From Amphiscolops sp. MND2022 (Eukaryota): 64,000 nt of DNA. Position 1 is the stretch's first letter, and the number at the start of each line of letters is the position of its first letter. The DNA is taken from contig OZ076409.1 in assembly GCA_964187785.1 (NCBI GenBank), positions 62,126,001 to 62,190,000 of the forward strand, given 5' to 3'. The position numbers and the translations under genes were made by a program. Below are positions 3,001 to 57,314 of the stretch, piece after piece. The notes beneath the pieces are model-generated. The model was given only the letters and a program-made list of their open reading frames with translations. It was not told the DNA's origin and made no database searches.

Positions 3001-6000
3001 AAAATTGACCCGAAAATGACTAAAAAATCATTTTTGACTTTTTCCGATTTTCTCAAAAACTGTTCACACGATTCGAACGAAAGTCTCCACAGTCATTTCA
3101 CACCAAAATACAGTCCTTTATGAGCAATGGAATCAAAATCGTACGGCTGGGATACGAGAAACATAGTCAAAATTACTTTAAAAATGGCCAAAAAACTGCC
3201 ATTTTTCGATTTTGTTCAAGTTCCTCAAAAACTTATCATATAATTAGAAGGAAATTTTCGACAGTCATTTTACACCCTAATAGAACCCTATATGCGCAAT
3301 GGCATCAAAATGGTATTACGGGGATGTGAGTAACATAGCCAAAACTGACCCAAAAATGACTAAAAAAATATTTTTGGACCTTTTCCGATTTTCTCATAAC
3401 TGTCCATACTATTCGTACGAACTTTACTACAGTCATGCTACACCATATTAGCGTCCTTTATGTGCAAAAGCATCAGAACTGTTTGGCTGGGATGCGAGGA
3501 ACATAGCCAACATTAACCCAAAAATGGCCGCAAATCAGCCAGTTTTCGTCATTTTTTCTTGAATTTCTCAAAATTTCCATATGATTCGAACGAAAGTTTC
3601 TACGGTCTTTTTACACCATATTAGAATCCTAAATACGCAATGGCATCGAAATTTCATTGCTGGAATGTGAGAAACGTAGCCAAATTTGAACCAAAAATGA
3701 CTGAAAAAAAAAACATTTTTTGGACTATTTTTGACTTTCTTGAAACTGTCCATACGATCCGTACGAGTTTTTCTACAGTTATGCCACACCATAATAGAGT
3801 CCTATATATGCAAAAGCATCAAAATAGTAATGCTGTCATAGCCTGACGTGAGAGACATAGCCGGACGTGAGAGACATAGCCAAAATTACCCAAAAATGAC
3901 TAAGAAAAAGCCATTTTTGGACTGTTTTCGACTTTCTCGAAACTGTCCATACGAATCGTACGAACTTTTCTACAGTCAATTTAAACCATACTAGCGTTCT
4001 ATATGCGCAATGGCTTCAAACTCGTATTGCTGAGATGCGAGAAAGTTAGCCAAAATTAACCCAAAAATGGCCAAAAACAACCATTTTCGACTTTTTTCTA
4101 TTTTCTCAGAAACTGTTCTCACGATTCGGATGAAAGTCTCTACAGTCATTTCACACCAAACTAGAGTCCTATTTGCGCAATGGAATTAAAATCATATGGC
4201 TGGGATGCAAGAAACATAGCCGAAATTACTTTGAAAATGGCCAAGAAACAGCCATTTTTCGAATTTTTTCGAGTTTCTCAAACACGTATCATATAATTGG
4301 AAGGCAATTTTTGACAGTCATTTTACACCATGAAAGAACCCTATATGCGCAATGGCATCAAAATGGTATTACGGGGATGTGAGAAACATAGCCAAAATTG
4401 ACGCAAAAATGACCTAAAAAACATTTTTGATCATTTCCGATTTTCTCAAAAACTGTTCACACGATTCGAACGAAAGTCTCCACAGTCATTGCACATCAAA
4501 CTAGAGTCCTTTATGCGCAATGGAATCAAAATCGTATGGCTGGGGTGTGAGAAACATAGCCAAAATTGACCCAAAAACGACTAAGAGCAAACCATTTTTG
4601 GACATTTTTCGTTTCTCTCAAAACTGTCCACACGATTCGTACGAACTTTTCTAGGGTCATTCTACACCATATTAGAATCCTATATGTGCAAAAGCATTAG
4701 CTTTGTATAGCAGGGATGCCAGAAACATAGCCAACATTAAACCAAAAATGGCCAAAAAACAGCCAGTTTTCGACTTTCTTTCGAATGTTCAAACTGTCCA
4801 CACGATTCGAACCAAACTTTCTACAGTCATTTCACACCATATTAGAGTCCTACTTGCGCAATGGTATCAAAATTGTATGGCTGGGATGCGATAAACATAG
4901 TCAAAGTTAACCCAAATATGGCCAGAAAATTGCCAAGTTTTGATTTCTTTAGGTTTTCTCAAAAGCTTTCCATATGATTGGAGCGAAAATTTCTTGTCAT
5001 TTTACACCATAATATCGTCATATATTATATGTGCAATGGCATCAAGACCGAATTGCTGGGATGCGAGTAAAATAGCCAAAATTAACCCAAAAAATGGCCA
5101 GAAACAACCATTTCTCGACTTTTTTCTATTTTCTCAGAAACTGTCCTCACGATTCGGATGAAAGTCTCTACTGTCGTTTCACACCAAACTAGAGTCCTAT
5201 ATGCGCAATGGAAACGAAATCGTATGGCTAGAATGCGAGAAATATAGCCAAAGTTAACCCAAATATGGCCAAAAAACAGCCATTTTTCGATTTTTTTTCG
5301 ACTTTCTCAAAAACTGAACACACGATTTGAATGAAAGTCTCTACCGTCATTTCACACCAAACTAGAGTCCTATATGCGCAATGGAATCAAAATCATATGG
5401 CTGGGATGCGAGAAACAAAGCCAAAATTATTTTAAAAGAAGCCAAACGACAGCCAATTTTCGACTTTTTTCAAGTTTCTCAAACACTTGTCATATAATTG
5501 GAAAGAATTTTTTGACAGTCATTTTACACCATAAAAGAACCCTATATGCGCAAAGGCATCAGAATCGTATTGCTGGGATGTGAGAAACATAGCCAAAATT
5601 GACCCAAAAAGGACTAAGAGCAAACCATTTTTGGACATTTTTCGATTCTCTCAAAACTGTCCATACGATTAGTACGAATTTTCTAGGATCATTCTACACC
5701 ATATTAGTGTCCTATATGGGCAAAAGCATCAGAATTGTATAGCAGGGATGCCAGAAACATAGCCAACATCAAACCAAAAATGGCCAAAAGAGAGCCAGTT
5801 TTTGACTTTTTTTCGAATGTTCAAATTGTCCTCACGATTCGAACGAAACTTTCTACAGTCATTTCACACCATATTAAAGTCCTACTTGCGCAATGGAATC
5901 AAGATTGTATGGCTGGGATGCGATAAACATAGTCAAAGTTAACCCAAATATGGCCGAAAACAACCATTTTTCGACTTTTTTCGATTTTCTCAGAGACTGT

Positions 6001-9000
6001 CCTCACGATTCGAATGAAAGTCTCTACCGTCATTTCACACCAAACTAGCGTCCTATTTGTGCAATGGCATCAAACTCGTATTGCTGAGATACGAGAGACA
6101 TAGCCAAAATTACTTTCAAAATGGCCAAAAAACAGCCGTTTTTCGACTTTTTTAGAGTATCTCAAACACTTATCATATAATTGGAAAAAAATTTTCGACA
6201 GTCATTCTACACCACAAAAGAACCCTATATGCGCAACGGCATCAGAATTTTATTGCTGGGATGTGAGAAACAGACCCAAAATTGACCCAAAAACAACTAA
6301 GTGCAAACTATTTTTGGACATTTTTCGATTCTCTCAAAACTGTCCATACGATTCGTACGAACTTTTCTATTGTCATGCTACACCATATTAGAGTCCTATA
6401 TGTGCAGAAGCATCAGAATTGTATGGTTGGGATGCGAGAAACAAAGCCAACATTAACCCAAAAATGGCCACAAATCAGCCAGTTTTCGACATTTGTCGAA
6501 TTTCTCAAACTTTCCATATGATTAGAACAAAATTTTCTACAGTCATTTCACACCATAATAGAATCCTATATGCGCAATGGCATCAAAATCGTATTGCTGG
6601 GATGTGAGAAACATATCCAAAATTGACCCAAATTGACTAAGAAAAACTCATTTTTGGACTATTTTCGATTTTCTCGAAACTGTCCATTCGATTCGTACAA
6701 TTTTTTTTTACAGTCAATTGACACCAGAATAGCGTCCTTTATGCGCAATGGCATCAAACTCGTATTGCTGAGATACGAGAAAAATAGCCAAAATTAACCC
6801 AAAAATGGCCAAAAAGAGACATTTTTCGACTTGTTTCGATTTACTCAAAATCTTTCCACACGATTCAAATGAAACCTCTCCAGTCATTTCACACCAAATT
6901 AGAGTCCTTTAAGCGCAATTGAATCAAAATCGTATGGCTGGAATGCGAGAAACATAGCCAAAATTAACTCAAAAATGGCCAAAAACAGTCATTTTTCGAC
7001 TTTTTTCGATTTCCTCAAAAACTGTTCACACTATTCACACGAAAGTCTCTACCGTCATTTCACATCACATTGGAGTGCTATATGCGCAATGGAATCAAAA
7101 TCGTATGGCTAAAATTCGATAAAAATAACCAAAAACAACTCAAAAATGGCCAAAAAACATCCATTTTTCGACTTTTTTCGATTTTCTCAAAAACTGTCCA
7201 CACGATTCGAAGGAAAGTCTCTACAGTCATTTCACACCAAATTAGAGTCCTTTAAGCGCAATGGAATCAAAATAGTATGGCTGGAATGCGAGAAATATAG
7301 CCAAAGTTCACCCAAAAACGGCCAAAAACAGCCATTTTTCGACTTTTTTCGACTTCCTCTGAAACTGTCCACACGATTCACACGAAAGTCTCTACAGTCA
7401 TTTCACACCAAATTAGAGTCCTATATGCGCAATGGAATCAAAATCGTATGGCTGGGATGCAAGAAACATAGCCAAAATAACTTCAAAAATTGCCAAAAAG
7501 AGCCATTTTTTGACTTTTTTCGAGTTTCTCAAAAACTTTTCATATGATTTGAAGGAAACCTTCGACAGTCATTCTACACAATAGTAGAATCCTATATGCG
7601 CATTGGCGTCAAAATCGTATTGCTGGGATTTGAGAAACAGACAAAATTACTTCAAAAATTGACCCAAATATGACTCAGTAAAAAACCATTTTTGGACACT
7701 TTTCGATACATGGAAACATAGCCAACGTGAAACCAAAAATGGCCAAAAAACAGCCAGTTTTCGACTTTTTTTCGAATGTTCAAACTGTCCACACGATTCC
7801 AACGAAACTTTCTACAGTCATTTTACACCATATTAGAGTCCTGTTTGAGCAATGGAATCAAAATCGTATGGCTGGGATGCAAAAAACATAGTCAAAGTTA
7901 ACCCAAAAATGGCCAGTAAACGGCCAATTTTTGATTTCTTTAGGTTTTCTCAAAAGCTTTCCATATGATTCGAACGAAATTTTCTTGTCATTTTACACCA
8001 AAATAGCGTCCTGTATGTGCAATGGCATCAAAACCGTATTGCTGGGATGCGAGTTAAACAGCCAAAATTAACCCAAAAAAGGGCCAAAAACAACCATTTT
8101 TCGACTTTTTTCGATTTTTCTCAAAAACTGTTCACACCATTCAAATGAAAATCGCTACAGTCTTTTCACACCAAACTCGAGTCCTATATGGGCAATGGAA
8201 TCGAAAGCGTGTGGCTGGAATGCGAGAAATATAGCCAAAGTTAACCCAAAATTGGCCAAAAAACTGCTATTTCTCGACTTTTTTCAATTTTTGCAAAAAG
8301 TGTCCACACGATTCGAACGAAAGTCTCTACAGTCATTTTTCACCAAATAAAAGTCTTATATGCGCAATGGAAGCAAAATCGTATAGCTTGATTTCGACAA
8401 ATATAGCCAAAGTTAACCCAAAAATGGCCAAACAAAGTCATTTTCCGGCTTTTTTTCCGGTTTTCTCAAAACGTGTCCACACGATTCGAACGAATGTCTC
8501 TACAGCAATTTCACACCATATAAGAGTAATATATGCGCAATTGCATCAAAATTGTGTTGCTGGGATGTGCATCAATAGCTGAAATTGACCCAAAATTGTC
8601 TTAAAAACAGCTATTCTGGACATATTTCGATTTTCTCAAAACTGTCCATACGATTCGTTTGAACTTTCCTACATTTTTCTACACCATATTAGAGTCTTTT
8701 CGTGCAGAAGCATCATAATCGTATGACTGGGATGCGAGAAACATAGCCAAAATCAATCCAAAAATTTCGATTTTCTCAAAAAGTGACCACACGATTCAAA
8801 CGAAAGTCTCTACAATCATTTCACAACTAATTAGAGTAAAATATGCGCTATGGAATCAAAATTGTATAGCTGGAATGCAACGAATCTAGCCAGAGTTAAC
8901 CTAAAAATGGCCAAAAAACTGCCCTTTTTTGACTTTTTCTAATTTTCTCAAAAACTCTCGAAATGATTCGAACGAAATTTTCTACAGTCTTTTCACACCA

Positions 9001-10295
9001 TAATAGAGTCCTATATGAGCAATGGCTTTCAAAATCGTATGGCTGGGATGTGAGAAATATAGCCAATGTTGACCCAAAAATATCTTGAAAACAACCATTC
9101 TGGAAATTTTTCGATTTGCTCAAATCTGTCCATACGATTCGTTTGCACTTTTCTACAGTCTTCCTACACCGTATTTGAGTCGTATATGTGCAAAAGCTTC
9201 AGACTCGTATGGTTGGGATGAGAGAACATAGCCAAAGTTAACCCAAAAATGGCCAAAAAACAGTCATTTTTCGACTTTTTTCCAGATTTCTCAAAAACTG
9301 TCCAAACGATTCGAACGAGGCTTTCTACAGTCATTTTACACCATAATAGAGTCATTCATGCGCAATTGCATCAAGTTTGTAAGGCTGAGATGTGAGAAAA
9401 ACAACCGAAATTGACCCAAAAAATGCTAAAAACAGCCATTTTTCGTTTTTTTTTGATTTTCTCAAAAACTGTCCACACGATTCGAACGGAATTCCATACA
9501 GTCATTCCACACCATATGAGAGTTCCGTATGCGCAAAAATGTCTTAAAAACAACCATTCTGGAAATTTTTTAACTTTCTTAAATCTGTCCATACGATTCG
9601 TACAACCTTTCTACAGTCTTTCTACACCGTATTAGAGTCGTATATGTGCAAAAGCATCAGACTCGTATGGTTGGGATGCGAGAACATAGCCAAAGTTAAC
9701 CCAAAAATGGCCAAAAAACAGTCATTTTTTGACTTTTTCCCTGTTTTCCCGAAAACTGTCCACACGATTTGAACGAAATTTTCTACTCTCATTTTAAACC
9801 ATAATAGAGTCCTCTATGCGCAGTTGCATCAAAATGGTACTGCTGGGATCTGAGAAACATAGCCGAAATGGACCCGAAAAAGGCTAAAAATGGCCATTTC
9901 CGGACAGTTTTCGATTTTCTCAAAACTGTCCATACGATTCGTACGAACTTTACTACAGTCATTATACACCATATAAGATTCCTTTACTTGCAAACGCATC
10001 GGAATTGTGTGGCTGGCATGCGAGGAACATAGCCATAATCAACCCAAAATGGCCAAAGAACAGCCATTTTTCGACCTTTTTCGATTTTCTCAAAAACTGT
10101 CCACACGATTCGTACGAACTTTTCTACAGTCATACTACACCGTATTAGAGTCCTATATGTGCAAAAGCATCAAAATCTTATGGCTGAAATGCGAGAAACA
10201 TAGCCAAAATCAACCAAAAAATGGCCAAAAAACAGTCAATTTTCAACTTTTTTTCGAGTTTCTCAAAAAGTGTCCAAACGATACGAACGAAATTT
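1..10295. repeat. Tandem satellite array, ~171-bp monomer (about 60 copies), runs off the window start
   Basis: Motif TTCTCAAAAACTGTCCACACGATTCGAACG...ATGCGCAATGG(A/C)ATCAAAATCGTATGGCTGGGATGCGAGAAACATAGCC recurs at ~141, 313, 482, 656, 826 and onward (169-174 bp spacing). Confidence 0.97.
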
Positions 10296-12243
10296 CATTA
10301 CAGTGCATCGAAGCTAAATCGCCACAGACACTGTTCAGTGCGTGTATGTCCTCAGATTCCGCAGACATATCTTAAAGCGTGTAAAATTGGCAATTTAGCA
10401 CTGATGTTGCGGGATCCACGCCACGAAAGTCGGCGTTTTTCGACATCCGAAGGGCATGGGTTTATACGTAAGACGGTTTCATATTGCGGAAACTGGGACC
10501 AAAATTATGCCGACAAATGCCGACAAGATGGCGCCAAATTCGTGGCTGGGATTCCACAAAGTGTATTATAACCAATCAGAGGGCTGTAAATTTTAAATTT
10601 CAGCGTCTTAGTTTCCACTTATGTTTTGATTAGCCGAAATCAAATTTAATAAGACAGAGTGTAAATACAAAGTCAATTACCACAAACAAGTTACAATCAA
10701 TGTCTCCCTTTCCGTAAAACTGTCGGCTTCTCTTCCTTTCATCTTTATATTGGTGATAAATTTATTTCAAGACTCTACTATACTATGGTACTACAATTAT
10801 ACCAACTGCATTTGAATTTGAAAAAAAACGAAAGTTGAAAATGAGTTTGAAAAAAAATGAGAAAGAAAAATTTCTTTCAATACTTCACTATACTCTGGTG
10901 GAACATACTATGACAATGAAACTTTGATTGAAAAAGTCAACTAGAATGCACTTGAAACCATTCAGGCTACTTATACTATACTATATTATACTATAATATA
11001 CACTATACTTTCAGTATTGTAGAAAATATTTATACTGATTGTATAAAATGATATACAATAGTGAAATACATTCATACCAATTGGAATAAATTGTTTTAAA
11101 AAAGAAAAATTGATTTCAAAAATTAGAATGGAAATCGGGAGACTTTGGTTCCAATCGTGGGTCAAATCGTGAAGCTTTTTAGATCAATAAAAGTGAATAT
11201 TTCATTGAAATAGTCAGTTAGAATGCAAATGAAAAGATTGAGGTTACTTGTACTATTCTTACCTATAATATACACCGTACTATATACAATAGTGAAATAC
11301 TACCTTTATACTGGAAAGATTTTTTCTTTAAAAATGAAGGATTTGTTATAATAATTACAGTGGAAATGGGGAGATTTTGGTTCCAATCGTGGGTCCAATC
11401 GTGAAGCATTTTAGCGACCAGAAAGTTTTTGACCAATAACCCCCATCCCTCCTCCCCAATCACGAAAGCACAAACTCAAGGACAAACCTAATCGAAGTGA
11501 TTTCTTTTTGAATTTCCTCAAATAGTGACGGAAACTTATTGACTTAAATTGTTAGCATTACAGCTTATACCATTGTCTCTTTTTCTCTAGTTTTGATTTT
11601 ATTATATTGTTTCAAATATTTCATCGATTCACATGAGGAGGAATTGCAAAGATTTTGGTTCAATTCAATAATGGACCTTTTCTGTTAATTCAAGTAATTC
11701 AATACCCGCAGTAATTCAATGATATTCTGCGGCCACAATTTTTTGAACGGGCATCCCGAAAAGAATACTGACCCCAGTAAGGCTCTCACGGTTCCAGATT
11801 ATGTGCCCATTGCTGTTAACCCCTACACGAAAACCTACGAGGAAGTAATGACCATCAAAACCCGCAAAGATGGTTACCCATGTTAAAGGCAGGGGAAGAA
11901 CTGTCTTGCCGGCAAAAACGGTGGGTCCATCTTTGCACCCGAAACGCTGTCCTTTTGATGCTGCCAATACGGGAATATGCTCAACCCCCCTTTAACTAGA
12001 CTTTTCAGATTTAGAGAAATTTGTAGATTCAGATTTAGATTTTCATTATTATTGAAAAAATGACAAAAAAACTGCAACAAAATACTTTACAAACCCGTTT
12101 CATTCAAGAAGTTTAATGTGAAAATTAATTGAAAAATATACTCAAACGTTCAAAACATGCTTTGAAACATTTAAACATTTGGACGTCTAATGCAAATTTT
12201 TTCAAAGAAGAAAAATAGGAGAAAAATTAGGAGTAAACCTCCT

Positions 12244-13811
12244 CATTACGAGGCCAAAGTGGGAAAAACGTGAACTACAACGATTTCGTTGTTGTAATTT
12301 TTGAATTCTTGAACTAATGGTAATACATGCAAATTTCAAGAATCGAGAAAAACTAAGCGAAAGCAAGTGGGGATTTTTCTCGATTCTTGATTTAAATATA
12401 ATGCATAGCATGCAAGAATCGAGAAAAGTTTCAAGAATCGAGAAAAACAGCTTCTAGCTGTTTTTCTCGATTCTTGAAACTTTCTCGATTCTTCAATTTT
12501 ACGTTGATTCTTAAAATTTATATGAATTCTTGAAAATTGTATGTCAATTCTTCAAAACTTTTCATCAATTCTTGGTCTAATCTAATCACACTAAATGTTA
12601 TTGAGATTTGATTCTCAGTTTTAAAAAAAATTCATTCTCGCTTTTATATAAATATCATCCTTTTTCAAACCAATTTTATTTGAATTCTAAATTTTAAATC
12701 AAAAATTTGTTCAGGTTCGCGTGGTTGGACTTTCTACTGCTTTGGCCAATACCCGGGACTTGGCGGACTGGCTTGGGATCAAAACGCAAGGCCTTTTCAA
12801 CTTCAAGCCATCTGTTCGTTCCGTCCTTCTTGAAATACACATGGCAGGTTTTGCTGGCAGACATTACTGTCCACGAATGGCATCGATGAACAAACCTGCT
12901 TATCAACAAATCAGAACCCATTCCCCCAACAAACCAGTGCAACTGGTTTAGAAGTTTTTGAAAATTCATAGTGTGACTCGAAGAGATAATAACCGTTATT
13001 GTGACAATGTTATTGTCATGTTAATAATGTTATTGTGACAATAACATTATGATGGTCTTAGGCTAATTCTTTTTCGTTCCATGTGGCCAAAATCGATGAA
13101 ATTTGAAAATTCAAAGAGTGACTCGAATTCAAGTTAATTTTGCTTTTGTTGCTCATGGATTAGAAATTTTTAATAATTCATTGAAAGACTCGATGTCAAT
13201 TCAATTTTGCTCTTGTTACTCACGGTTTTTGACAAGTAGTTTTTGACAAGTAACGAAGTAAAAAGCTAACATGAATCTCCTCCTGGTTGAGAAAAAACCT
13301 TTGCTTCAACGAAATAAAAATATTCATTCAAAAATCTATTAAAGTAACCCGAGCAATCATTGTAAACCTTTATTAGAATTTTAACAATGATTCTTCCGTT
13401 GAAATAATCATCACCTGATCAATAAAATTTACTATTATGACATTTGAATAAGAATTCGGGAAAACTTTCTAAGAATTCAGACACTTTGCAAGAATCGATA
13501 AAATTTTCAAGAATCAACAAAATTTTCAAGAATCGACAAAATTTCGAGAATCGACAAACTAATGTTAATACATCATCTCCATGTATTAACACTAGTGTCT
13601 AGATTCTCCAATGATTTTTTCTCGATTCTTGAATTTGGTGGAAATACATGCGCACTATTGTTTTCTCAATTCTTGACTTTTATAGGCGGCATAAACAATT
13701 CCTTTGAAGTTCAATTTTCAAGAATCGAGAAAAAGTTCACTTCGCTGCGTTAAATTACCACTTTTCTCGATTCTTGAAAATTTGAACATTTCCCACTTTG
13801 GCCTCGTAATG
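12244..13811. mobile_element. Non-autonomous CATTAC-family TIR element (1568 bp) nested in element 1
   Basis: Perfect 23-bp TIR CATTACGAGGCCAAAGTGGGAAA; 2-bp TSD CT (12242-43, 13812-13); many subterminal CAAGAATCGAGAAAA motifs in both orientations. Confidence 0.95.
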
Positions 13812-13839
13812 CTCAAGTGAAGTTCTGCAAGCTAAAACC

Positions 13840-14256
13840 GCAATGGAAACCAGGACATTTATTGTAACGCGCAATCATGTGTCTACCCCTTTGAGTGAAA
13901 GTCCTCAATGTATTAGGATTTGTGTATGGTTTCCACGCCATGTGTTTAAAGATATGGTCTTGTTTTCCGCATTGCATTCGTTGAGTAAGTCAGTTTATGC
14001 TCAAAACGGTTGAAACTAGGACGTTTGTGGTAACGCGCAATCATGTGTATGCATACCCCTTTCAGTGAAAGTTCACAATGTATTAAGATATGTGTTTGAT
14101 TTCCACGCCATATGTTTGAGGGAAATATACATGCTTCGCACTTTTCCGCATTTGCTTCTTGCGGCTTGGGAGATTTTTCCAAAACACGTGGAAACCAGGA
14201 CAAACGAAAGTTCGCCGAAACGGAGCCTAATATTGTGTGCTTTTTGGTACCAATCA
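13840..14256. repeat. Internal ~167-170-bp tandem repeat cluster 1 of element 1
   Basis: Repeated TAACGCGCAATCATGTGT...TTCCACGCCAT(G/A)TGTTT...TTTTCCGCATT; ends in TTTTGGTACCAATC. Confidence 0.85.
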
Positions 14257-14399
14257 ATGACATGTAAAACATTTCCTCAGTTCGTAGGAGCATCACAATT
14301 ACCCTAATAACAAAAGTTGAGAATTTATTGAATAGTTTCAAGTTCGGGTAACATATGAATTAGAAGAGAACAGTGAATCAAAACGACAGATGTCTAAAA

Positions 14400-17340
14400 G
14401 TGCCATCACGACAATCGCAGATACACCTTTGGATCCGGGCTGAAGTATGTATGGCTCCGGGTCAATCAGCATTTTTTTCTCGTCAACTTCAGCTACAAAA
14501 TCGATGTTCAAAAATTAGAAACCCCCAGCTGCAAATAGTTTCGCTATTTTGGAATATTGTGATGGTTCAATTCCAAACTCCCGTGTTGCTGATGACTCTC
14601 TTTTCTTTGGTTTCTTCATATCGTTTATTTCCTCTGTGGAACATAAGATTAAGTCTTTTTCGTCCTTCAGAACAAAACAATTGGGGAGCTGTGAATGGGT
14701 GCTCATCAACACGTCAGCTTGTTCATTCTCTAGAAAAGTCCCTCCCAAATTGATAATCAAGTTTTTCACCATGTCATGTGTTAGAATATGTTTGTTCCAG
14801 GAACCCAAGCGACCAAGCAGTGAAAATCTTAACCCACTTAAAGAATTTTCTTGACATCCAATGGCGATAGCTGTCAATGGTGGTTCTTTGCGGCAAATAT
14901 CAAGATACTCAGGTCCTGGGACGTCAATGTCCTTCACTTTTGTTGCACTATGAAAAATACTCATTACGCTGTTCGAGTTTTTTTTTCGAAACTGTCTGAT
15001 AGTTCTTTTTGTTTCTAGTCACATTATGACTACTACTATCATCAAAGTAGACCTCTGTTGGTGCGTTTTGTTCAGGTTCCATGATGTTCCTATAAGTTGG
15101 TTCCGCGTCCAACCCTTTGTCTTCAACTTCAACTGCGACTCTTAAGAATTTCAAGAAAGAAAAGGACGACTTGAGGAATAGTGGATCCTTGTGATAGATT
15201 TTGCCTCCTCCGCGCCTTGTTTTTGTCTGGAATCCACGATTAGCTTGGTGGTTGGATTTTTCAAGGCCTTCGCACGAATGATCAAATGGTCTTTGTATAT
15301 ATACACTCTCAACAAGTTGAGGAAACATCAGCATTTTCAATTTATAAGGTGTCAAACCGGCACACCCGAATATCAAGATTTCAATTTGGTAATAGGCTTC
15401 AGCCCATTTTTTGAATGTTTCATTGTTGAATTCTTCTGCTCACAGACATAAAACACTTTGGTTCAAACTCGATCGCAGGAGTTCGCAAGCACCAAAAGCA
15501 GATTTGATTTTGTCACTGGACACTTTTTGCTTGGAGTTATTTTTAATGAAAAGTTTAGTAAACCAGTTTCTTAGGATATTAACGCAAGGGACATCTGCGC
15601 TTTCTTCACTACCAACAATGATAAGAGACCCCAAACACCATCGTAAAGATCGCTAATTTTACAGTCTTTTGCACGTGCAAGCTCCTCTTTATCGGCAATG
15701 ACCGCTTGAGCACTCCTACCTGCGAGGGATACTGCACCTACAGTACCGATACCTGAACCACTTCTATGAGATATGTTGAACTGAAAGTATGGTTTCTTTG
15801 CATCTTTTCTAGTCAAGTTTTCTTCAAGCTGGCGAACTGCTACATCATGATTAGGAAACTTTTCTCTGATAATTTTCGATGCAATTCTCTGGAGGTCATT
15901 TTCAACATAACGGGTGGTCATTTGCGTGGTATCAGGACAAACTGATTGCTGATTGTTTATTTTCGTAGAAGATGAAGGAAGATTTTTGGGGGTCCGTTCT
16001 GAGGGGTATAATAACATCATTTTGGTAGACCAGTGTCATGATGACATTTTGTTGGTGTGTATTAAAGTTCCGTTATATATAGTGGCATTTTCGATGGGCT
16101 AGTTGACTCAACTGTGATTCCGAGCACTAATTTCATTAAAAACGGCGAATCGCCACTGTATGTCAAAATAACGCCTCGTTTTGATAGTTCCAGGGTCTTC
16201 TTAAAAAATCAACCAGACTCTGGAACTCCAGCTATAGTTGGTCCAAGGTTTTGCTCCAATGCGAATCTTCTATATTTATCCCTGTATGCAGCAAAACAGA
16301 ATACTGAATGTGATGATTGACACTTTACTTTGTCAGTAAGGATCCGGATTGCAATTTGTGTTGTTTCGACACCTTCAATTTCACAACCATCACCCCAAAT
16401 GTCAACTCGTAGGCCATTGAGTTCTTTCGTTCCAATTAGGAAGTATGACACCCTTCCACGCATTTGATAAGGTTGCAGCGAAAACCAGAGAAGTTTCTTA
16501 CTGGCTCACACATTGCGGTAAAGTAGGACTGAATCTCGGATGTTGACTTCTTGACCAATCAAATGCATGGGACTAAATAGTATCCGAGTCCAACAATTGA
16601 GAGTCTTGTTCGAATAACTTTTATAACATCTTCCATGTTACCCGTTTTCGTGACAATAGATAAATGGTGCCTGAACTCATCAGTAGATCCTCTTGTTTCG
16701 AAAAGATCTTCAATTTTTTGATTAGGTTTGGTTCCTTTTTTGTGAATCGTTGATCTTTTCTCTTATTTGCAGAGCTATTGATTTTTTCATGAAACTGTTG
16801 AACCCAACTTCTGACATCAGATTTGTTCTAATTAGATCAGTTTGTTCACGTTTGACTTTTTTTGGCGTCTGATTTTTCTAGCTCCCTTTCTTTTGAGAGA
16901 AAATTGTCACTGACTGGACCTTCAGGGCCACATCTTCAGGAGTCCCATCTGCAGGTGTCGCAAGGGTGTCTTTCATGTAAGGATTGTAATATGGTATGAC
17001 ATCATTAATGAAAAACAAACTGACAAACTCTCTTCTGGCTGAATTCTAAGGAAAGTCTTCAAATCCACGCAGTACAAGTAGTTTTGCCAATTTTGCTGCT
17101 ACAAATACAGGAGCTTTTTTTGGCCTTTAACAGCAATTCTCCGAATGAATTTTTTTGCATTTAATTTTGTGCTAGTCAACATTTCCCCAACAAGTGTCTC
17201 GAACATCCGAAACCTATTCGGTATTTCTTTCCCGGAAACATCGTCAAAAAATCTACAGTTTGTGATGAGTTTTTCATTTTCCACTTTGATAATATTTCTT
17301 TCCCAAATTGACAGGGGAGTCATTTCTAAAGCCGGTTTTT
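14400..17340 (-). pseudogene. Frameshifted RAG1/Transib/CMC-related DDE transposase with C-terminal BRCT-like domain
   Basis: Ordered motifs across broken frames: RVDIWGDGC (D1), LTYSGDSPFL (D2), VCPDTTQMTTR, LTPYKLKMLMFP...HSCEGLEKSN (E). Compare RAG1 KESCDG / GYDEK / DALH / TNYFHK / SEGNESGN. Followed by LSGLRFSLLG...DMVKNLIINLGG (BRCT-like). Boundaries approximate. Confidence 0.72.
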
Positions 17341-17724
17341 AGGTTTACTGCAAAGTGAAATTGTATTGATTGTAGAAAATTTTTCAGACTGACAACCATT
17401 ACACACAATAAAATGAAATGCAATTAGATACACAAAACCACAAGTGAAAATGAGTCCGATTTTGAGTCTCTCCATTAAATTGATGAAGAACGGTTCAAAT
17501 AATTTATTAAACTTGAGTCCATATCACCCAAGGCCATTTTGTCAATAATCACAATCAGATGCAAAAGAGTCCTTCATTATGTCTTCTCACATATAATTAG
17601 AAGGTTTCACCTCTTAGGACTGTTTGTTTTGTCTTTGTAAAGTGTTATCTGATTGAAAACACTCAAAAGGTAGTAAAGAAAAGGAAAAACAAAAACTGTT
17701 TGATTGTTTTTCAAAAACCTTGAC

Positions 17725-18220
17725 TACACCCCTTCGAATGAAATTGAGCAACGTAATAGGATATGTGTTCGGTTTACACGCCTTGTCTTCAAAGTTATGT
17801 CTTTGTTTTCCGCATTGTTTTCTTTGAGCTAGTTATTATTTACTTAAATACCTTGAAAACCAGAACATTTATGGTAACGCGCAATCCGGTGTCTGCATAC
17901 ATACCCCTTCGAGTGAAAGTTCGAGTGAAAGAATGTGTTAAGATTTTGCTTTGAAATCCACGCCATATGTTTGAAAATATGGTCTTGTTTTCCGCATTAG
18001 GTTCTTTGAGCATTATACTGAAAATCCGTGGAAACCGAGACGAATAGAATTGAGCAATGCGTTACGACTTGTGTTTGGATTTCATGCCATGTTTTTTAAG
18101 ATGTGTCCTTGTTTTCCGCATAGCTTTTCGGAGCACTTCATTTATGCTGAAAAACGTTGGAAAACGCGACATGTAAAAATCCCGGAAAAAGCTGAGATGG
18201 TGTCATTTTTGGTACCAATC
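17725..18220. repeat. Internal ~167-170-bp tandem repeat cluster 2 of element 1
   Basis: Same unit as 13840-14256; starts ACACCCCTT, ends TTTTGGTACCAATC. Confidence 0.85.
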
Positions 18221-18447
18221 AGGGGATGACTTATAAAAGACAAGTGCCTTGTTGATCATACGCTTTCAGAATAAAGTAATTCGATAGTCTAAGAATTTCC
18301 TCAAGAATTTTCACGAATGCAAGATCATGGAAGTCATATTGTAATACTTACTAATATTGATGAAAGATGAACTGTTGAACAAACAAAAAATGATCAAACA
18401 CGAATACAAAAAGTTTTTTAAAATTTAAAAGATTGTAAGAGAGTATT

Positions 18448-19850
18448 TCATGCGTCTGAGACAGGTACATTTCGACTCAGATCTCTATATGGGCTGTTTT
18501 TGTAGTGGCCTTGGCTCGTCAAAAACTGAACACGAATCGTGAACATGCCAATTTCTCGCTGATCAAAGAAACTCATTGTCTTTAAAAGAACATCTTCTCC
18601 ATCGCTTGCGTGACATGGGATCAAATCCCAATTTCTTCCAAGTACAGTATCCCATGTACCGTTGCACCATTTATGTCCCTCTTGGTTTGCAACACTATAC
18701 TTGGCAGCCTCTTTGAAATTGCAAGTTTCAAAGCTACAGAGCTTTTTTGTCAAAGAGGTACAGGGAACTAATGTTGCGGTTAAGGAATGCTTCTTTCTTG
18801 AGAGTCCCATCATTCGTTTCATTGCGGAAAACAAAGCATAAGCTTGGTCCATGTTTTCCAGAAGCAAATTAAAATCCATAACATCGCCTTTAGAAGACGT
18901 TGTTGTGACAACCCGAATTGTTGGAAAAAGCACTTCAATGTGAGGATCACTTCTGCTCTACATGAATGCACATGCTTTTCTCTTCTGATAATCATAGTAA
19001 CCTTCTTGCGTTCAAAATCATCATTTGCGTAAAATACAATAAATCCAACCTGAAAATAAAATGATTGAACAAATATTAGGTGGGAAAAAGTCCTTGAAAA
19101 ATTTGGTGCCAAGGGTTATCAAAATTCAAAAGCAAAATTTGCAAACAAAAAAGCAAGAAAGAATACCTTTATGACATTATTTTCACAAGGCGCATATGTT
19201 AATTCAACGTCATCGTCAACATTTGGAGGCAAGGAAAGAAGGTCGACTTGTGGCATCGGTTAGGTGGCGCTTGTCACACGGGCTTGCTTCTTGACGAATG
19301 GGCGATGTACGTCAGATCCTGAATCTTGATCTTGTTCAGTTTCATCATTTTTTGGTTCAGTGTCTCTTACACAAGGTTTATTTCTTAGTTGGCGATACGA
19401 AACATACCCCTCATTGTATTGTCCTCCACGTCGGTTATCAAACATTGTTGACAGGAAGCGTCAATAATTTTTACCCTACCTATCACAACTGACTCACAGC
19501 AATGGTCCTCCCGGCATCTTTCGCTATCTACACAATTACAATCTGGCTGCCAAAAGTAAATTTGATCGTTTCTGACCAGTCGACGAGCGTTGTAGCTAAG
19601 TGGTGTTGACCGTCCATTGTTGCTCACAGTTTCTTCGCGGACAAGATTGTGGGATTTTCTAATTTTCCAGTGATTTTTGTCAGGTCTGTATACTTCGGGA
19701 ACAGTGATATATTCTTTTCTATTGTAACACCAATCGAACCATTTAATTCTTACACACCAATCGCTCACAAAAGAAATAATTTTCGCTGATTCTCAAATTG
19801 ATGTCGCAGGATCCAAGATTTACACAACTTCATTTTCATAGAGAGATTGT
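18448..19850 (-). pseudogene. Element-borne gene: N-terminal Tudor/chromo-barrel-like region plus C-terminal WD-x-x-LG-x-x-WD domain of unknown function
   Basis: Translation LYENEVV*ILDPATSI*ESAKIISFVSDWCVRIKWFDW; probable intron ~19050-19170; C-terminal LVPCTS...WDTVLGRNWD. Homologue at 46969-48835. Confidence 0.55.
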
Positions 19851-20184
19851 AGAAGCATTTATATTTTAAAGCTCGAAACTAATAGAATGTGTAGACCCCT
19901 TATGTGGTGACTGTTGATGGGATGAGCGTTAAAGAAGACGATAACGAGATTGGTTGCAACCCAAATTAATTACAACTAGTCGTCACTTTTTTACCAAGCA
20001 TGTGCACTAATAAAAGTAGTTGCAAATTGGAGACTATAGCATCATTCCGAAGTAACGCTTTTCACATGCCTCATTTAGGATTGAGGTTTTCAGTTGCACA
20101 GCCGGATATGGCACTACAAATTACCATTTACCAGATATTATCGTATTCCGTATCAACAAATATTCGCAATCTACAATCATTATC

Positions 20185-22827
20185 TTGAAATTGTCTCTGA
20201 AAATCAGACAGTCAAAACTGAATTTCAAACTCTCTGAAATGGAACAAAACAAACCCTTTGCTGCATTTGTTGATGCCCCCAATTCCAACACCATCTTCCG
20301 CGGACATGTCACGTTAACCCAAATGCAAACTCCTTCTAGTTTGTTTACGCCCCTGGTATCGCCCGAGATGTTTAGCCAAACACCGGGCGGGCCACTCAAC
20401 AGCACTCCGCTCTGTCTCAAAGATCCACCTGAATTCAGCTTCAATGATGCGATGATGGAATAATAACCGAACATCTCCCGACTGAATCTGAAGAGGTCAT
20501 TAACGAGTTTTTGAAAATTCAGAGCGAATCATCAGCTGAGATTATAATTCCTCTAAAACCGTCGAATGGACATGCAAGCTCGGATAATGTAGCAAGCAAA
20601 CGTCCTATGCCCCCACCAGTTGATATGGTAAATATACTAAAACTTCTGAATAGATACGTTTTAAACTTTGCGTTTCGATGAGGGGCACGTTCCCTGGAAA
20701 CCAATTAACTTTTTAATTCCTGGAGGATGCGTTATCAGTTTCAAATACATTTTGAAAATTTTTGAAAACTCTCCATTTTTTAAATTGTTCCCGCCAAGAA
20801 GAAGAAGCCTGATAATAAAACGGATACAGTGGAGTCCTTCATCAAATGGACAATAACAGAGAATGTATCACGTTGTAGTAAGAGCATTCTGGCTACGAAA
20901 AAGGTTCAAATGGAGTTCAGTTCTTTCTTTCTAATTTTCTTGGGTTTTCGGGATCAGGAGGTCAGCAATGTCACTGTCCACGCCGTGAAATGAAAGAATC
21001 CGACGACAAAAATGCCTCTTTCAGGCTTGAGATAGATGTAGCGGAGTGATGCGCCCAAAAAACGTGCTACAATATCCCACGATGGTTATCGGGAGGCTTT
21101 GTGGACTACTTTGTGAGTGTTCGAAGCGCGTTTCTGGAGCACAGTGAGGGAACTCCTTTCGAAAGACTGCTGAGTGACCCAGACGATCGGATCCTGTACA
21201 CCGAATTGTTTTTTTGTGAACTCCGTTGGGAAACCCAACCAAAAACTTCCAACCTAGCCACGTTGTTGACCAATATATGGAGTCGGTATGTATTAACAAA
21301 TCATAATCACACCCCTTTGAAAAAAACAAGCAATGAGTTAGGATTTGGATTCGATTTCCACGCCATGTGTTCAAAGATATGGTCTTCTTTTCCGCATTGC
21401 GTTCTTTGAGTGAGTCAATTCGAACTGAAAACCGTGGAAACTAGGGCATTCGTGTTAACGCGCAATGGTGTGAAAACCCCTTTGAGTTAATGTTCGCATT
21501 GTATTAGGATTTGTATTTAATTTGAACGCCATGTGTTTAGAGATATGATCTTGTTTTCTGCGTCGCATTCTTTGAGCAAGTCAAATTATACTGAAAATTC
21601 GTGGAAACCGGGACAGTTTATAATGTAGAGCTAGTTTTGGTACCAGTCGAGGGTCGATCTATCTGTGACACGTACACTGTTGATATAATTAATTCAGAAT
21701 GCATATAGACACTATTGTGAAACCCTTTCAATCAAAAAACGACGGTATTTTCATCGAATGCAAAAACCCAAACAAAACAAAGCTAAATTCAATGTTTGTA
21801 TGAATTTAAACAGGTACTGAAACACTGTGATAGCCCGCTGTGAGAATTGGAAAGGCACCTTCATATTGTGTTGCCCATTGCAAGCGACACTGAAGCAGCG
21901 CTCCCTAAGTTGAAAGTCCAAACAAAAGCAATTTGGGAGACTCTGGACATTGCCTTGGACTACCAGGTCGTGGAGTTGGTGGTGAGAAGGCACCAGGATC
22001 GACAGAGATATGCCCGCCAATCAGCTCGTGCCAAGCCTTTTTTAAGCATATGAATGGGAAAACTAACGTTGCTTCGTTGGAAATGAGACTGAAGAGCTAT
22101 TTTCAGCGACAGAAGTGGACGACGCAGGATGAAGGCAACCAAGACCTGAGAAAAGTTTATGTACTTGTGCTGCCAGTGCTTATTACACCAAAAGTAGAAA
22201 CGAACATAGCAATTCAGAAGATTTATTAAAAGGATTGGCAAGCAATATGGAGTTTGAAGATCAAACTTTGCTTATGAAGAGATGTCGATATCAAAAATGG
22301 CCCGGAGTCACGCAGGTTTTTTTAGCAAGTTTTGACGAGGAATCGTTGCCACCCGAGTTTTCCAGAAAAATGAAGTCGTCCTTGATTACCACGGGCAGGT
22401 TTTTCACCCAAACATCAATGGACGAAGTATCCGCCATTGAGGTGTTAAACGGGAGTTTTGTCTTGAAGTCAAAGGACCTGACCGAAGGATAATCAATGCC
22501 TATGCGGAAACGTGTCCTGTCCACCCTGATAGTAGATGTATGGGCAGCCTTGCCAATCACTCAGTTTTGGAAGCCAATATGGAGTCCACTGATGTCGTTG
22601 TGTTTGCCGACAACAATCAACGTTAAGTTGTCCTCCGAGCAAGTAAAACAATTCATCTCTTCGAGCAATTAATTTTCTACTACGAAGATCCGGTAGCCCG
22701 CTCTGAATTCAGTGAGTCAAAGTCAGGCAGCAGCTCAGAAAACACCAGCAGCCTCTTCAGCGGTAGTCAAGAACCAAGAAAAGAAAACAGTAACAACCTT
22801 GCAGAAAATTTAGACAAAGAAAATTGA
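20185..22827 (+). pseudogene. Element-borne gene: tentative tyrosine-recombinase-like region fused to a C-terminal SET domain; disrupted
   Basis: SET: QKWPGV...INAYAETCPVHPDSRCMGSLANHS..EAN...VVLRASKTIHLFEQLIFYYED (22280-22700; frameshift and stop). Recombinase-like: LGFRDQEVSNVT and DYFVSVRSAFL...LFF (20940-21290). Intron ~21286-21813. SET is solid; the recombinase call is weak. Confidence 0.65.
21308..21650. repeat. Internal ~167-bp tandem repeat cluster 3 of element 1 (intronic)
   Basis: ACTGAAAA(C/TT)CGTGGAAAC at ~21423 and ~21590; ends TTTTGGTACCAGTC. Confidence 0.85.
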
Positions 22828-23396
22828 CGTTGAAAGGGAATCACAAACTTTTAGACATTTGTGGCATTGGTTCATTGGTTTTAGTGTACGTGATTGTTTA
22901 AAATGTTGTTACTTAGTTTGCACTGAAACTATTTTGAGATTAAAATGCTGACGAAAGCTTGAACCTAATTTTAAACCATTTCAAAGTAGTTTTTGTAACG
23001 TTTGCACCGCAATGCAAGAATTAGGTTTGATTTGAAGAATTCATTTACTTTGTTATCATAAGTCAAAATTTGAATGGAACAAATTTTCCAATAAAATTCA
23101 CACCCAAAATTACATCGGAAGCCCCTTGATAATTTGAGGTGAAAGAAAACGTACTTCAAAGTTTTACAAAACGTCACAAGTTCAATTGTAAGTCCAAAAA
23201 ATAGGTTGCTCGAATATTTTTATTCAAATAGATTCAAGTATAGAAAACTTTTTTTCCGACAGTGGGTCGTGTTGTGATGTTTCAATTCGTTACTAACGAT
23301 GATGTACTTATTAAAAAGTCGTTTCTTGTCATATCAATAATCACACATTGCTAATTCTTATCGGAGATTTTCAAAAGTTTATATATGTGTCTAATT

Positions 23397-23645
23397 CAAC
23401 GGCGGCATAATGGAGATGGTGGCGCAGTTGATAATTCCCGGTTGTCAGGAGTGAAGCTTGATACGTTGTCTACCACCGGTTCGATTTCGCCTATAAACTT
23501 CAAGGTGATTTGATGCAGACTACTCTGTATTCCCTCCATTTTGATTGAGCAAAAGACGATTGTGTTTCTCTTCACAATGATCGAAAGAGCCCACATGAAA
23601 TGATCACTGCGCCACTGCATCTCTTTTGATGTCCTTTTTTCCAAT
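23397..23645 (+). repeat. tRNA-like/Pol III-box module, copy 1
   Basis: GATGGTGGCGCAGTTG (A-box-like) ... GGTTCGATTTC (B-box-like); paralogous to 24121-24350. Confidence 0.55.
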
Positions 23646-24120
23646 TGGTTGTGATATCCGGTCTCATCCGTTCTTGTAATATAAACTGAAAGTTTTTTGA
23701 TCGCCTCATAGGCTTATCATCAAAAAGGTTTCCCTTCGTCTTTCGACCACAAATGTCATTTTCTGAAAACACATAGAAATTACATGCGACTTACAATCGA
23801 TTTATCTTGCCTCAATAACAATGAAAAGTAGTACATGGTAATCTGTTCGTTTTTCCGTACATTTCTTACGTTCATTGAATACTATCTTCTCATTGGTCAC
23901 GACAAATGAAAACGTAATTACGAGAGTTACGGTAATGTGACAGAACAATATTCCAACGATGTATTAAGTAATTGAAACACCGAGATTCGACCCACGATTG
24001 GAAACAAAAGTTTTTCAAAAGCATTCTCTATATTCCATTTATTGCTATTTTTCATCGAAGATGACAGCCAAGTGGTTCAAAACCAAGTTCAACAATCAAA
24101 AATTTTTATTTGTGTCCAAA

Positions 24121-24350
24121 GCAACGGCATAATGGGGATGGTGGCGCAGCTGATAATTCCCGTGGGTATGTAGTGAAGCTTGATACCTTGTCACCACCGG
24201 TTCGATCCCCGCCAACACGCTATTGGGAGACTCGATGCAGACTGCTCTGTATTCCCTCCACTGTATTGATTCGGCAAAAGGTGTCAATCCACTTCACAAT
24301 AATGGAAGAATCACTGCGCCACTGCATCTCTTGTGATGTCTTTTTTTTAT
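24121..24350 (+). repeat. tRNA-like/Pol III-box module, copy 2
   Basis: GGGGATGGTGGCGCAGCTG ... CCGGTTCGATCCCCGCCA; second A-box-like TGGCGCAGTGA on the minus strand at ~24311-24322. Confidence 0.6.
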
Positions 24351-25423
24351 TGGTAGTTCATTCTGTCTGAGAAGACTCCCTCTATCAAATCAAACTCAAC
24401 TATAACTGCAACTGAAACTCATCACTGATAGGAGTGGGTATTTGAAAATTCCGCGCTTAATGTGTTACTGTGGGGGGGGATGTTGAATTAACGGAAAAGA
24501 TCCCAGCATACCTTTAGCTGACTTGATTAACAGCTAAAATTTTCTTGAAGAAAAAACTCGAAATTAAGGACTCTCACTTTCAACTAGAATTTCACAGTCA
24601 TCAATTTCGGTGTGACCCAAATCGTACACTTCAGTTGTAATATATTTACCATTGGTCAGCTTTACAATTTATTTACAATTACAAGATTTGATGTTTCTGT
24701 ACATAAATGGGACACCAATTGAAACAATTGAAAGACATTACTGAAACATTTAATAACTAAAAATTTTAAACTGAAATAACTGATAATTTTAAATGAATCA
24801 TGAAATTTGACCTTTCGAAGAACGCAAATTCATTTCAACGTAGTAAAAACCTTACTTCCGAGAGGGTATGTTATAGGTACAGGTTCAACTGTATTCTTTA
24901 GACTCTCAAATGTAAATATTTTACTATAGTGGAATGCTACATTTCTACCAACTGTATGAATTTGAAAAAAATGAAAATTTTATTGAAGTAATTAGTGTGG
25001 AATTGAAGTTATATTTTGGTTCCAATCGTGGGTCAAATCGTGATTAACCGAGCATTATCTTTTCTAGCTATTTTCATCTGATTCCAAGAGATAAAATGCG
25101 GAAACAGAATATACGTGTTGCGGAATGTAGGTGAACGAATTACTCTACTGGATAAAAATGTGAAGTCTGAGACACATTTAGCACTAAGCACTATTTGCAC
25201 TCTACATAATTGGCGCTATTAGGGCCTGGCATAAGTGGCAATTAATTGGCCCCATTAACTTGCCAAGACACAAACTTGCGGAAAGTAAGATATCGACTTC
25301 AAAGGAAGCTAAGGCAGCCGACATCAAAAGGGAATGAATTCAGTGCACGCGTCTCGGTTTCCAAGATTTCGTGTCCTGATTTCCCCAAAACGCTCAGAAA
25401 AAGGATGCAGATGCACTCTATTG

Positions 25424-56350: not shown

Positions 56351-57314
56351 GATTCCAGAAATGTAGGAACAGAAACTTCTATAATTTTTTGCATAAATAG
56401 TCACTGTGCCGAAGAATCCAACGTGAACTGACAAGTCGTCATGAATTGAATAGAAGATAGCAATTGTCTGAGGTTGTTTTCAAACTTCCTCAAGAGAGAT
56501 GCGTTGATAGAAAACATCAACGGATCATACCTACCGGAAGAAATGGGCGTCAAGAGTAAATCTCACTTATCGACAGCTAAAAACTCTAGAAACAATAGAA
56601 ACAAAAAGGCTAAAAAAGAACTCTTTCATTTAACTTTTACCGAGCATTTGGTAACCTGTCCTCGGAAAACAACTACAAGTGATTTCATGTTGAGAATGAA
56701 GAGTTAGAAACCTCATTTGATTTAAAAAATACACAATAAGTTGGAAACTTTTGACCTTTAATATACATCTCGACAGCAAAGTATAATTTTTACGAGTTGT
56801 TACATGCGACAATGTTGAAAGCCATGTAGTTTCACGTACTAAAACGTAGCGAAAACATGAATACCAAGGTTCCATGGATGGAATCGCATAGAATTATTTC
56901 GAATCGTGTTGAATTGTGTTGAATCGAAGGCTCCAAATGTATGGTCAAGTATCAAAACCTCATGCTAAATGAAAGAAACATTTTACTAACATATGACATT
57001 AGTTCGTAACTGTTACGACTATTGTCCGGGGTTGTTTTAGAACTAGTCGCAGTGTATGCTTTCACGGGCGTGGACGTTCTTGCTACGGAGATGTTTTCTG
57101 GTTCAGAGACAGAATCTTGAACATTCGAACAAGCAGGCTGTTTTTTATTCAAAGGTGCTATCAATTTGAGCATTCCCTTCTTGTCACTGAAGTGACTCAT
57201 AACTTCACTAAACTAACTGAAGTGTTTCACGATTTTAGATATAATACTTTTTGACTTTATTTTGACGTAAAGTGTGCCCTCGAAGTACCGACCCTACTTC
57301 ATTTCCAAAAGTGG

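Follow-up and report, generated by a model that had tools for sequence, protein, structure and literature searches.

Transposases of the RAG1/Transib fold bind the ends of their element, nick the DNA and form hairpins by an established mechanism, and Transib termini read CAC, like the heptamer of the recombination signal sequence. Known Transibs generate a 5-bp target duplication and encode one protein (PMC4411706; papers are cited here by PMC number). The CMC/CMCT groups (EnSpm/CACTA, Mirage, Chapaev, Plavaka, ESTA and Lanisha, the last described in PMC8245031) have CA..TG ends and duplications of 2-5 bp by definition, and two zinc motifs, C(2)C and H(3-4)H, are reportedly common to RAG1, Transib and all CMCT groups (PMC12730594). 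EnSpm elements can be large and hold several genes (PMC6431247, PMC12477816), SET-carrying transposons are known as well, and anti-silencing cargo has precedents in VANDAL, in the SET gene of HarbingerS and in TET/JBP (PMC12730594). Here we describe, in a 64,000-nucleotide stretch of the Amphiscolops sp. MND2022 genome (the window; contig OZ076409.1, positions 62,126,001 to 62,190,000), a decayed copy of a young, multi-copy and recently spreading DNA transposon of 17-19 kb.

Our favoured explanation, which we hold with a probability of about two in three, is that of a RAG1-fold, zinc-free, BRCT-bearing transposon that likely keeps itself mobile through the action of its JmjC, SET and Tudor-like genes on its own chromatin. 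That this is a real, active-type transposon with a RAG1 fold and a fused BRCT domain is, in our judgement, close to certain. An earlier note, made from the letters of the window, had proposed the RAG1-type core, the BRCT fusion and non-Transib ends; the loss of the zinc motifs, the 18-kb size and the chromatin-enzyme cargo are features beyond it.

Transposase core, zinc motifs and BRCT domain

The five motifs that the earlier note had read in the order of the RAG1 catalytic core stand in that order on the minus strand of the window (IWGDG at 16400, SGDSPF at 16157, PDTTQM at 15936, TPYKLK at 15352 and SCEGLEKSN at 15277), split over three reading frames. They are not a product of chance, because six of the 11 other fetched copies keep them in one stop-free frame of 1017 codons, running from the core through the BRCT region, and because conserved residues, the DDE triad included, are unsubstituted: no substitution was seen at D320, D400, D470, H473, E692 or E695 in the ungapped rows of two alignments (A2, 41 rows; A3, 29 rows). 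Since multiple genomic copies supply intact frames, the piecing together of the frameshifted protein that had been suggested is unnecessary. At PDTTQM the conserved His is missing from the window copy (H473 to Q); intact copies read PDATHM. E695 would be the equivalent of RAG1 E962.

The proposed core fold was borne out by structural matches of an AlphaFold model of the intact transposase (predicted local distance difference test, pLDDT, 77). Residues 221-744 aligned to RAG1 with a VIA Z of 17.6 and a root-mean-square deviation of 4.1 over 413 positions, and the model gave Z scores of 15.6 against HzTransib, 15.0 against BbRAG1L and 10.0 against the P-element transposase. All of the Foldseek matches listed at E<=0.001 (40 counted) were RAG1, BbRAGL or HzTransib, and Atlas neighbours at 0.92-0.94 were clusters with RAG1_RNase_H. 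With no CMC transposase in the PDB match lists, the fold gives no ranking between Transib and CMC. A PDB sequence search with the intact transposase returned nothing significant, and no match to Pfam RAG1, DUF1280, Transposase_21 or Plavaka appeared in sets of 2, 25 and 24 transposase proteins; a scan of the own genome with PF12940 (RAG1) and DUF1280 gave no match, its controls being likewise silent. The protein family is wide, with 612 members at E<=0.001 among 50%-identity representatives (150 of them listed), and a transposase name or Pfam label was found on none of the homologues listed (49 + 73). The N-terminal domain (pLDDT about 80) is possibly KilA-N/Bro-N-like and could bind DNA: compared with BFVD, it met several KilA-N/Bro-N entries of 70-105 columns, none at E<=0.001.

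As far as the aligned sequences tell, the C(2)C and H(3-4)H motifs are absent family-wide. At the zinc-motif positions, the transposase reads MPLY and YKLKMLMFP. C-x-x-C occurs in one of 45 rows having D400, and there off position; H-x(3,4)-H occurs in six of 58 rows, and in the six rows shown it lies away from the motif position; a His at positions 668-675 is present in 0/39 and 1/28 rows of two alignments. All seven EnSpm-type proteins of the same genome keep C-x-x-C. In our transposase, hydrophobic residues would stand in for the zinc site.

The BRCT-like stretch placed by the earlier note at 14650-14850 is a genuine BRCT domain of larger extent (about 14433-14850, residues 829-971), and it belongs, as had been claimed, to the same protein as the core, with which it shares its reading frame in intact copies. 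Residues 829-971 matched the MDC1 BRCT with a VIA Z of 10.5 and a deviation of 2.2 over 93 aligned positions, and the domains of BRCA1, Rev1 and 53BP1 with Z of about 10. The region is present in 27 of the 29 rows of A3, a diverse alignment reaching 22-23% identity, and in all 19 rows having both D400 and E695. Because it is kept across relatives to this distance, the domain dates from the ancestor of the family and is no gene of its own. Pfam detects BRCT_2 in 9/25 homologues (best E 7.6e-7) and in 8/24 proteins of a second set, with 32.3 bits in homologue P0097 against a cut-off of 21.3 bits; the own-genome transposase reaches E 0.016 only. The sole match of the family profile among PDB sequences, a non-significant one, was the PARP1 BRCT (E 0.56).

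Phosphopeptide-binding tandem BRCTs consist of two repeats with a Ser/Thr-Gly pocket. The domain described here is single, not tandem, and at the position before the Gly, the presumed phosphate-binding one, the aligned BRCT rows have no conserved Ser/Thr. For these two reasons, and because PARP1 gave the only (non-significant) sequence match in PDB, DNA binding is favoured; nucleic-acid-binding BRCTs of PARPs are in print. We give even chances to a role in holding DNA within the transpososome. Recruitment of repair proteins ranks below it, as a tentative option.

Element family, ends and cargo genes

The transposase stretch has at least 42 matches of 88-100% identity in the 1.07-Gb own genome (best 40 of 229 candidates scored). 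Intact elements measure 17,832-18,718 bp and carry 22-bp perfect inverted ends, CATTACAGTGCATCTGCAAGCT, and copies on different contigs are up to 99.9% identical, over 17,832 bp. A protein search, in which the best 94 of 1244 candidates were scored, yielded three tiers of relatives—families A, B and C—at about 90-100%, 77-82% and 63-64% core identity. The family-B element is 17.1 kb long; family C reaches about 47 kb, with a nested Gypsy sequence common to its copies. All three families begin CATTAC(A/T)GTGC.

The ends are indeed not those of Transib: CATTACAG termini occur in families A, B and C, with 2-bp target duplications. Duplications were counted in 14 elements, i.e., 13 of 19 fetched other copies with both ends readable plus the window copy. 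A 2-bp duplication flanks 11 of them (family A 9/9, B 1/2, C 1/2, window 0/1), the dinucleotides being GA, CA, TA, AA, GT and AC, and a 3-bp or 5-bp duplication flanks none of the 14. KolobokP-like long terminal direct repeats were rejected, as the ends are inverted repeats and the one direct repeat seen was subterminal (225 bp, 91%); a viral origin is unsupported, with 85 pattern matches in viral contigs and 0 confirmed.

Two family-C elements of 47.1 and 47.3 kb (G000 C8 and C13) are 99.6% identical and share the same nested Gypsy-type sequence, so the 47-kb unit appears to have moved whole. Family C further has its cargo genes inverted relative to family A, a 13-residue tandem repeat expansion in the N-terminal linker of the transposase (P0010, P0011; L053) and, in the copy at G000 C1 (L071), an inverted right end. 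A family-B copy (G000 C5, L045) shows another CATTAC-type end 110 bp past its right end, and its duplication is missing.

Three cargo genes, modelled from the DNA sequence, accompany the transposase. In the protein of one, C2H2 fingers precede a JmjC domain that is most similar to PHF8/KDM7 (E 6.6e-12) and is predicted to be a PHF8-like demethylase-type domain with an intact H-x-D...H iron triad (families A and B show HQD and LHF; family C shows the last His and GEK). Another encodes a SET domain (Pfam SET, E 1.1e-10) closest to SETD8 (E 9.8e-6), reading FDY at the switch position in all three families as against YDY in wild-type SETD8 (Y334). A change from Tyr to Phe at the SET switch raises the methylation number. 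SETD8 Y334F is listed with dimethyl-lysine in PDB 3F9X (PMC3529403). The third gene, a 434-codon partner, has two predicted N-terminal Tudor/SH3-like barrels (best Z 7.1, PHF20L1 Tudor), and its Atlas neighbours were sub-0.8 leads only.

Families A, B and C each have all three cargo genes, although the genes are rearranged in C, and on codon comparison the three are under purifying selection across the families. The ratio of nonsynonymous (dN) to synonymous (dS) divergence, computed from stop-to-stop frames over aligned codons only, lay between 0.10 and 0.16 for A vs B in the five of 12 segments with measurable dS; in the other seven, dS was saturated and dN was 0.16-0.54. Between close A subfamilies the ratio was noisy (0.12-2.4). 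In five of 14 metagenome loci whose transposases are about 30-50% identical, a homologue of the partner is encoded upstream of the transposase and on the other strand. A repeat of ~166 bp gave 171 matches inside 14 elements (306,644 bp) and 0 in 175,356 bp of flank.

Like other transposons with epigenetic cargo (VANDAL; HarbingerS and MuDR with SET; fungal TET/JBP), these elements combine chromatin-modifying genes inherited with the transposase and element-specific internal repeats, which in VANDAL are motif arrays. Unlike them, they unite on a single RAG1-fold element genes resembling a writer, an eraser and a reader, and their cargo is a PHF8-like JmjC and a SETD8-like SET, not TET or VANC. 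In the same genome, a SUV4-20-like SET sits at or just before the N terminus of EnSpm-type (Transposase_21) transposases (L083, L084, L089, L090, L093 and L094), and in L090 (355-3402, minus strand; E 6e-12 to SUV420H2) it lies inside the same 1016-codon frame as the transposase. These elements form a second transposon lineage of the genome with an H4K20 methyltransferase-like domain.

The decayed copy in the window

Mapped by its ends and DNA against a 17,832-bp intact copy, the window element is 15,128 bp long. Element bases ~984-6285 are gone, so that most of the zinc-finger/JmjC gene is deleted. Compared with the intact copy, the transposase gene carries six stop codons in frame, 11 indels that shift the frame (one within the poorly aligned 3' end) and H473Q; the codons for D320, D400, E692 and E695 are still present. 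The features are as follows.

10296..25423, no strand: whole decayed element
10296..10317, plus: left terminal inverted repeat, degenerate after CATTACAGTGCATC; the two ends of the intact copy match 22/22
25402..25423, minus: right terminal inverted repeat, mutated; flanks TT / AT, no clean duplication
14433..17323, minus: transposase gene, broken; 1017-codon open frame in 6/11 other copies
15115..16687, minus: RAG1/Transib-fold catalytic core, residues 221-744, with neither the C(2)C nor the H(3-4)H zinc motif
16391, 16151, 15271 and 15262, minus: codons of D320, D400, E692 and E695, respectively
14433..14850, minus: one BRCT domain (residues 829-971) that holds a variable insert; intact copies read it in frame with the core
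17012..17308, minus: N-terminal folded domain, residues ~11-110, possibly KilA-N/Bro-N-like (a lead only)
18451..19939, minus: partner gene, broken; 434-codon frame in family B, two predicted N-terminal Tudor/SH3-like barrels
20234..22821, plus: coding segments, broken, ending in the SETD8-like SET domain (21787-22821); putatively one spliced gene
11731..12016, plus: what is left of a coding segment found after the JmjC exons of intact copies, presumably the last exon of that gene
12244..13811, no strand: nested element, non-coding, its inverted ends 23 bp long (CATTAC...) and its flanks CT/CT
13828..14117, plus: cluster of the ~166-bp element-specific repeat
17728..18165, plus: cluster of the ~166-bp repeat upstream of the transposase
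21311..21615, plus: cluster of the ~166-bp repeat between SET-gene coding segments

The nested element, 1.57 kb long, has many internal inverted repeats and is likely a non-autonomous member of the same kind as its host transposon. Just left of the decayed copy, window positions 1-10200 form a long run in which GC and AT skew stay constant and which looks like a tandem repeat array. Elsewhere outside the element, a second SET-like fragment lies at 42275-42469 on the minus strand (29% identity, E 3e-6), and the segment at 57000-60000 is GC-rich (46-50%), strongly skewed and different from the rest of the window.

Mechanism, placement and meaning

Cut-and-paste transposition by a RAG1-type DDE enzyme is suggested by the fold, the ends and the duplications. 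Judging from the RAG1/Transib fold, the transposase would bind the element ends, nicks and hairpins would be made at the flanks, and insertion would proceed with a 2-base stagger. The C2H2-JmjC protein may be guided to the ~166-bp repeats, where it would strip repressive marks, and H4K20 methylation on the element may be written by the SETD8-like protein and read by the Tudor-like one. The substrates of PHF8 are H4K20me1, H3K9me1/2 and H3K27me2 (PMC8897848). On balance, we lean towards local chromatin control, through which the element stays mobile, as the function of the cargo.

Several observations weigh against this explanation. Foldseek template modeling scores are low (0.3-0.54) at 10-14% identity, and the intact transposases have no significant Pfam match of their own, BRCT included. 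The model of the partner is poor (pLDDT 40), its best Z of 7.1 lying within background. Ratios of dN to dS between the two close A subfamilies give no clear purifying signal in some segments (first JmjC exon 0.86-1.0, p13243 1.3-2.4, transposase 0.58-0.64). None of the 14 metagenome loci, each only 1-7 kb, has a SET or JmjC match, so this part of the cargo is documented for the own genome only. Three of the 14 elements are without a 2-bp duplication (the window copy, TT/AT; one of family B, TC/AG; one of family C, AA/AC), and six of the 19 fetched copies were excluded, as one end was not found. In addition, SETD8-type methylation can reportedly compact chromatin, which fits poorly with simple anti-silencing.

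Two other explanations concern what the cargo does. The accessory genes might be captured passengers or general-expression helpers, and the BRCT a structural or dimerisation appendage, given that the binding and activity of the cargo are predicted from sequence, that the selection signal is weak at short distances and that giant elements carry passengers, e.g., the nested Gypsy sequence of family C; however, all three genes are kept across families whose synonymous sites are saturated, their catalytic motifs are intact, and the partner is linked to the transposase in five of 14 distant loci, and we regard this explanation as improbable. Another possibility arises from the activity of PHF8 on H4K20me1 and from the H4K20 state setting the choice between 53BP1 and BRCA1-BARD1 (PMC8897848, where SETD8 writes and PHF8 removes H4K20me1). 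The BRCT, the SETD8-like writer, the PHF8-like eraser and the Tudor-like reader would then act as one H4K20 module choosing how the break is repaired: H4K20me0 at the donor would lead to homologous repair and restore the excised copy, and H4K20me2 with 53BP1 would lead to end joining. The Phe for Tyr in the SET domain of all three families, read alongside Y334F in 3F9X (PMC3529403), speaks for this module, as does the SUV4-20-like SET of the EnSpm-type transposases; yet PHF8-like enzymes act on several substrates, the SET is weakly SETD8-like (E 1e-5 to 1e-4), and the BRCT is single and without the Ser/Thr pocket residue, and we hold such steering of repair to be unlikely. We think it just as unlikely in its broader form—a superfamily-level, zinc-free RAG1-fold branch with its own H4K20 toolkit (including a predicted dimethylase switch) and a BRCT choosing repair, in which case the EnSpm elements of the same genome would have converged on the H4K20 mark via their SUV4-20-like domain.

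Regarding placement, the family shares with Transib (HzTransib, PDB 6pqx/6pqn; Z 15.6) the core fold, the D-D-E order and inverted ends starting CA, and differs from it in its CAT ends, 2-bp rather than 5-bp duplications (0/14), absent zinc motifs, C-terminal BRCT and three accessory genes. RAG1/RAG1L (ProtoRAG, BbRAG1L 6b40, TransibSU) provides the best structural match (Z 17.6 for RAG1, 15.0 for BbRAGL) and likewise has a conserved second gene beside the transposase, but our family has no zinc site, no RING or Chapa domain, and 2-bp duplications. The partner, compared with RAG2, matched only Tudor/SH3-like barrels, with no sign of a propeller in a low-confidence model (pLDDT 40).

A further reading would make the family a very divergent member of a named CMCT group (Mirage, EnSpm, Lanisha) or an existing Repbase family, with zinc loss and BRCT as traits of a sub-lineage. 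The CA..TG ends, duplications within 2-5 bp, large multi-gene organisation and a D-x-x-H common to the family and EnSpm-type proteins all agree with CMC/CMCT, and Mirage makes 2-bp duplications too. Set against this are the C(2)C and H(3-4)H motifs, which all named CMCT groups, reportedly including Mirage and Lanisha, keep (PMC12730594) and which are absent here, together with the BRCT fusion, the lack of any Pfam or profile match and the want of a transposase name or Pfam label on the homologues listed. The duplication is not restricted to TA as in ESTA, and the N-terminal 200 residues show, by eye, no Cys/His-rich pattern, unlike Chapaev/Chapaev3 with their N-terminal Chapa zinc finger. In hhalign, the probability against seven EnSpm-type proteins was 0.2%, from a shallow profile (effective number of sequences, Neff, 2.4). 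We find CMCT membership doubtful, and the distinct lineage that the earlier note had proposed is upheld by these same Pfam and hhalign results. The position between Transib/RAG and CMC that the note had also suggested is conjectural, the family being devoid of the zinc motifs that those two groups have in common. In a comparison that covered Mirage and Lanisha by description only and had the Repbase/Dfam sets outside it, the family probably falls outside the named superfamilies. No BRCT-fused or zinc-free transposase of the RAG1/CMCT group, and no such cargo set, was among the literature matches listed, Repbase Reports and subscription journals being outside the coverage. Apparently, this is an undescribed, recently active, zinc-free and BRCT-bearing lineage of the RAG1/CMCT group, of possible superfamily rank, and the element likely uses its own chromatin enzymes.

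An intact, recently spreading family without the zinc site implies that the site is dispensable, and it offers a natural comparison for how RAG-type enzymes set the target stagger (2 vs 5 bp) and pass broken ends to repair. Because its copies are nearly identical, with intact frames and defined ends, the system is open to experiment. If true, a cut-and-paste element with selected histone writer, eraser and reader-like genes would widen anti-silencing beyond VANDAL, oomycete SET and fungal TET elements.

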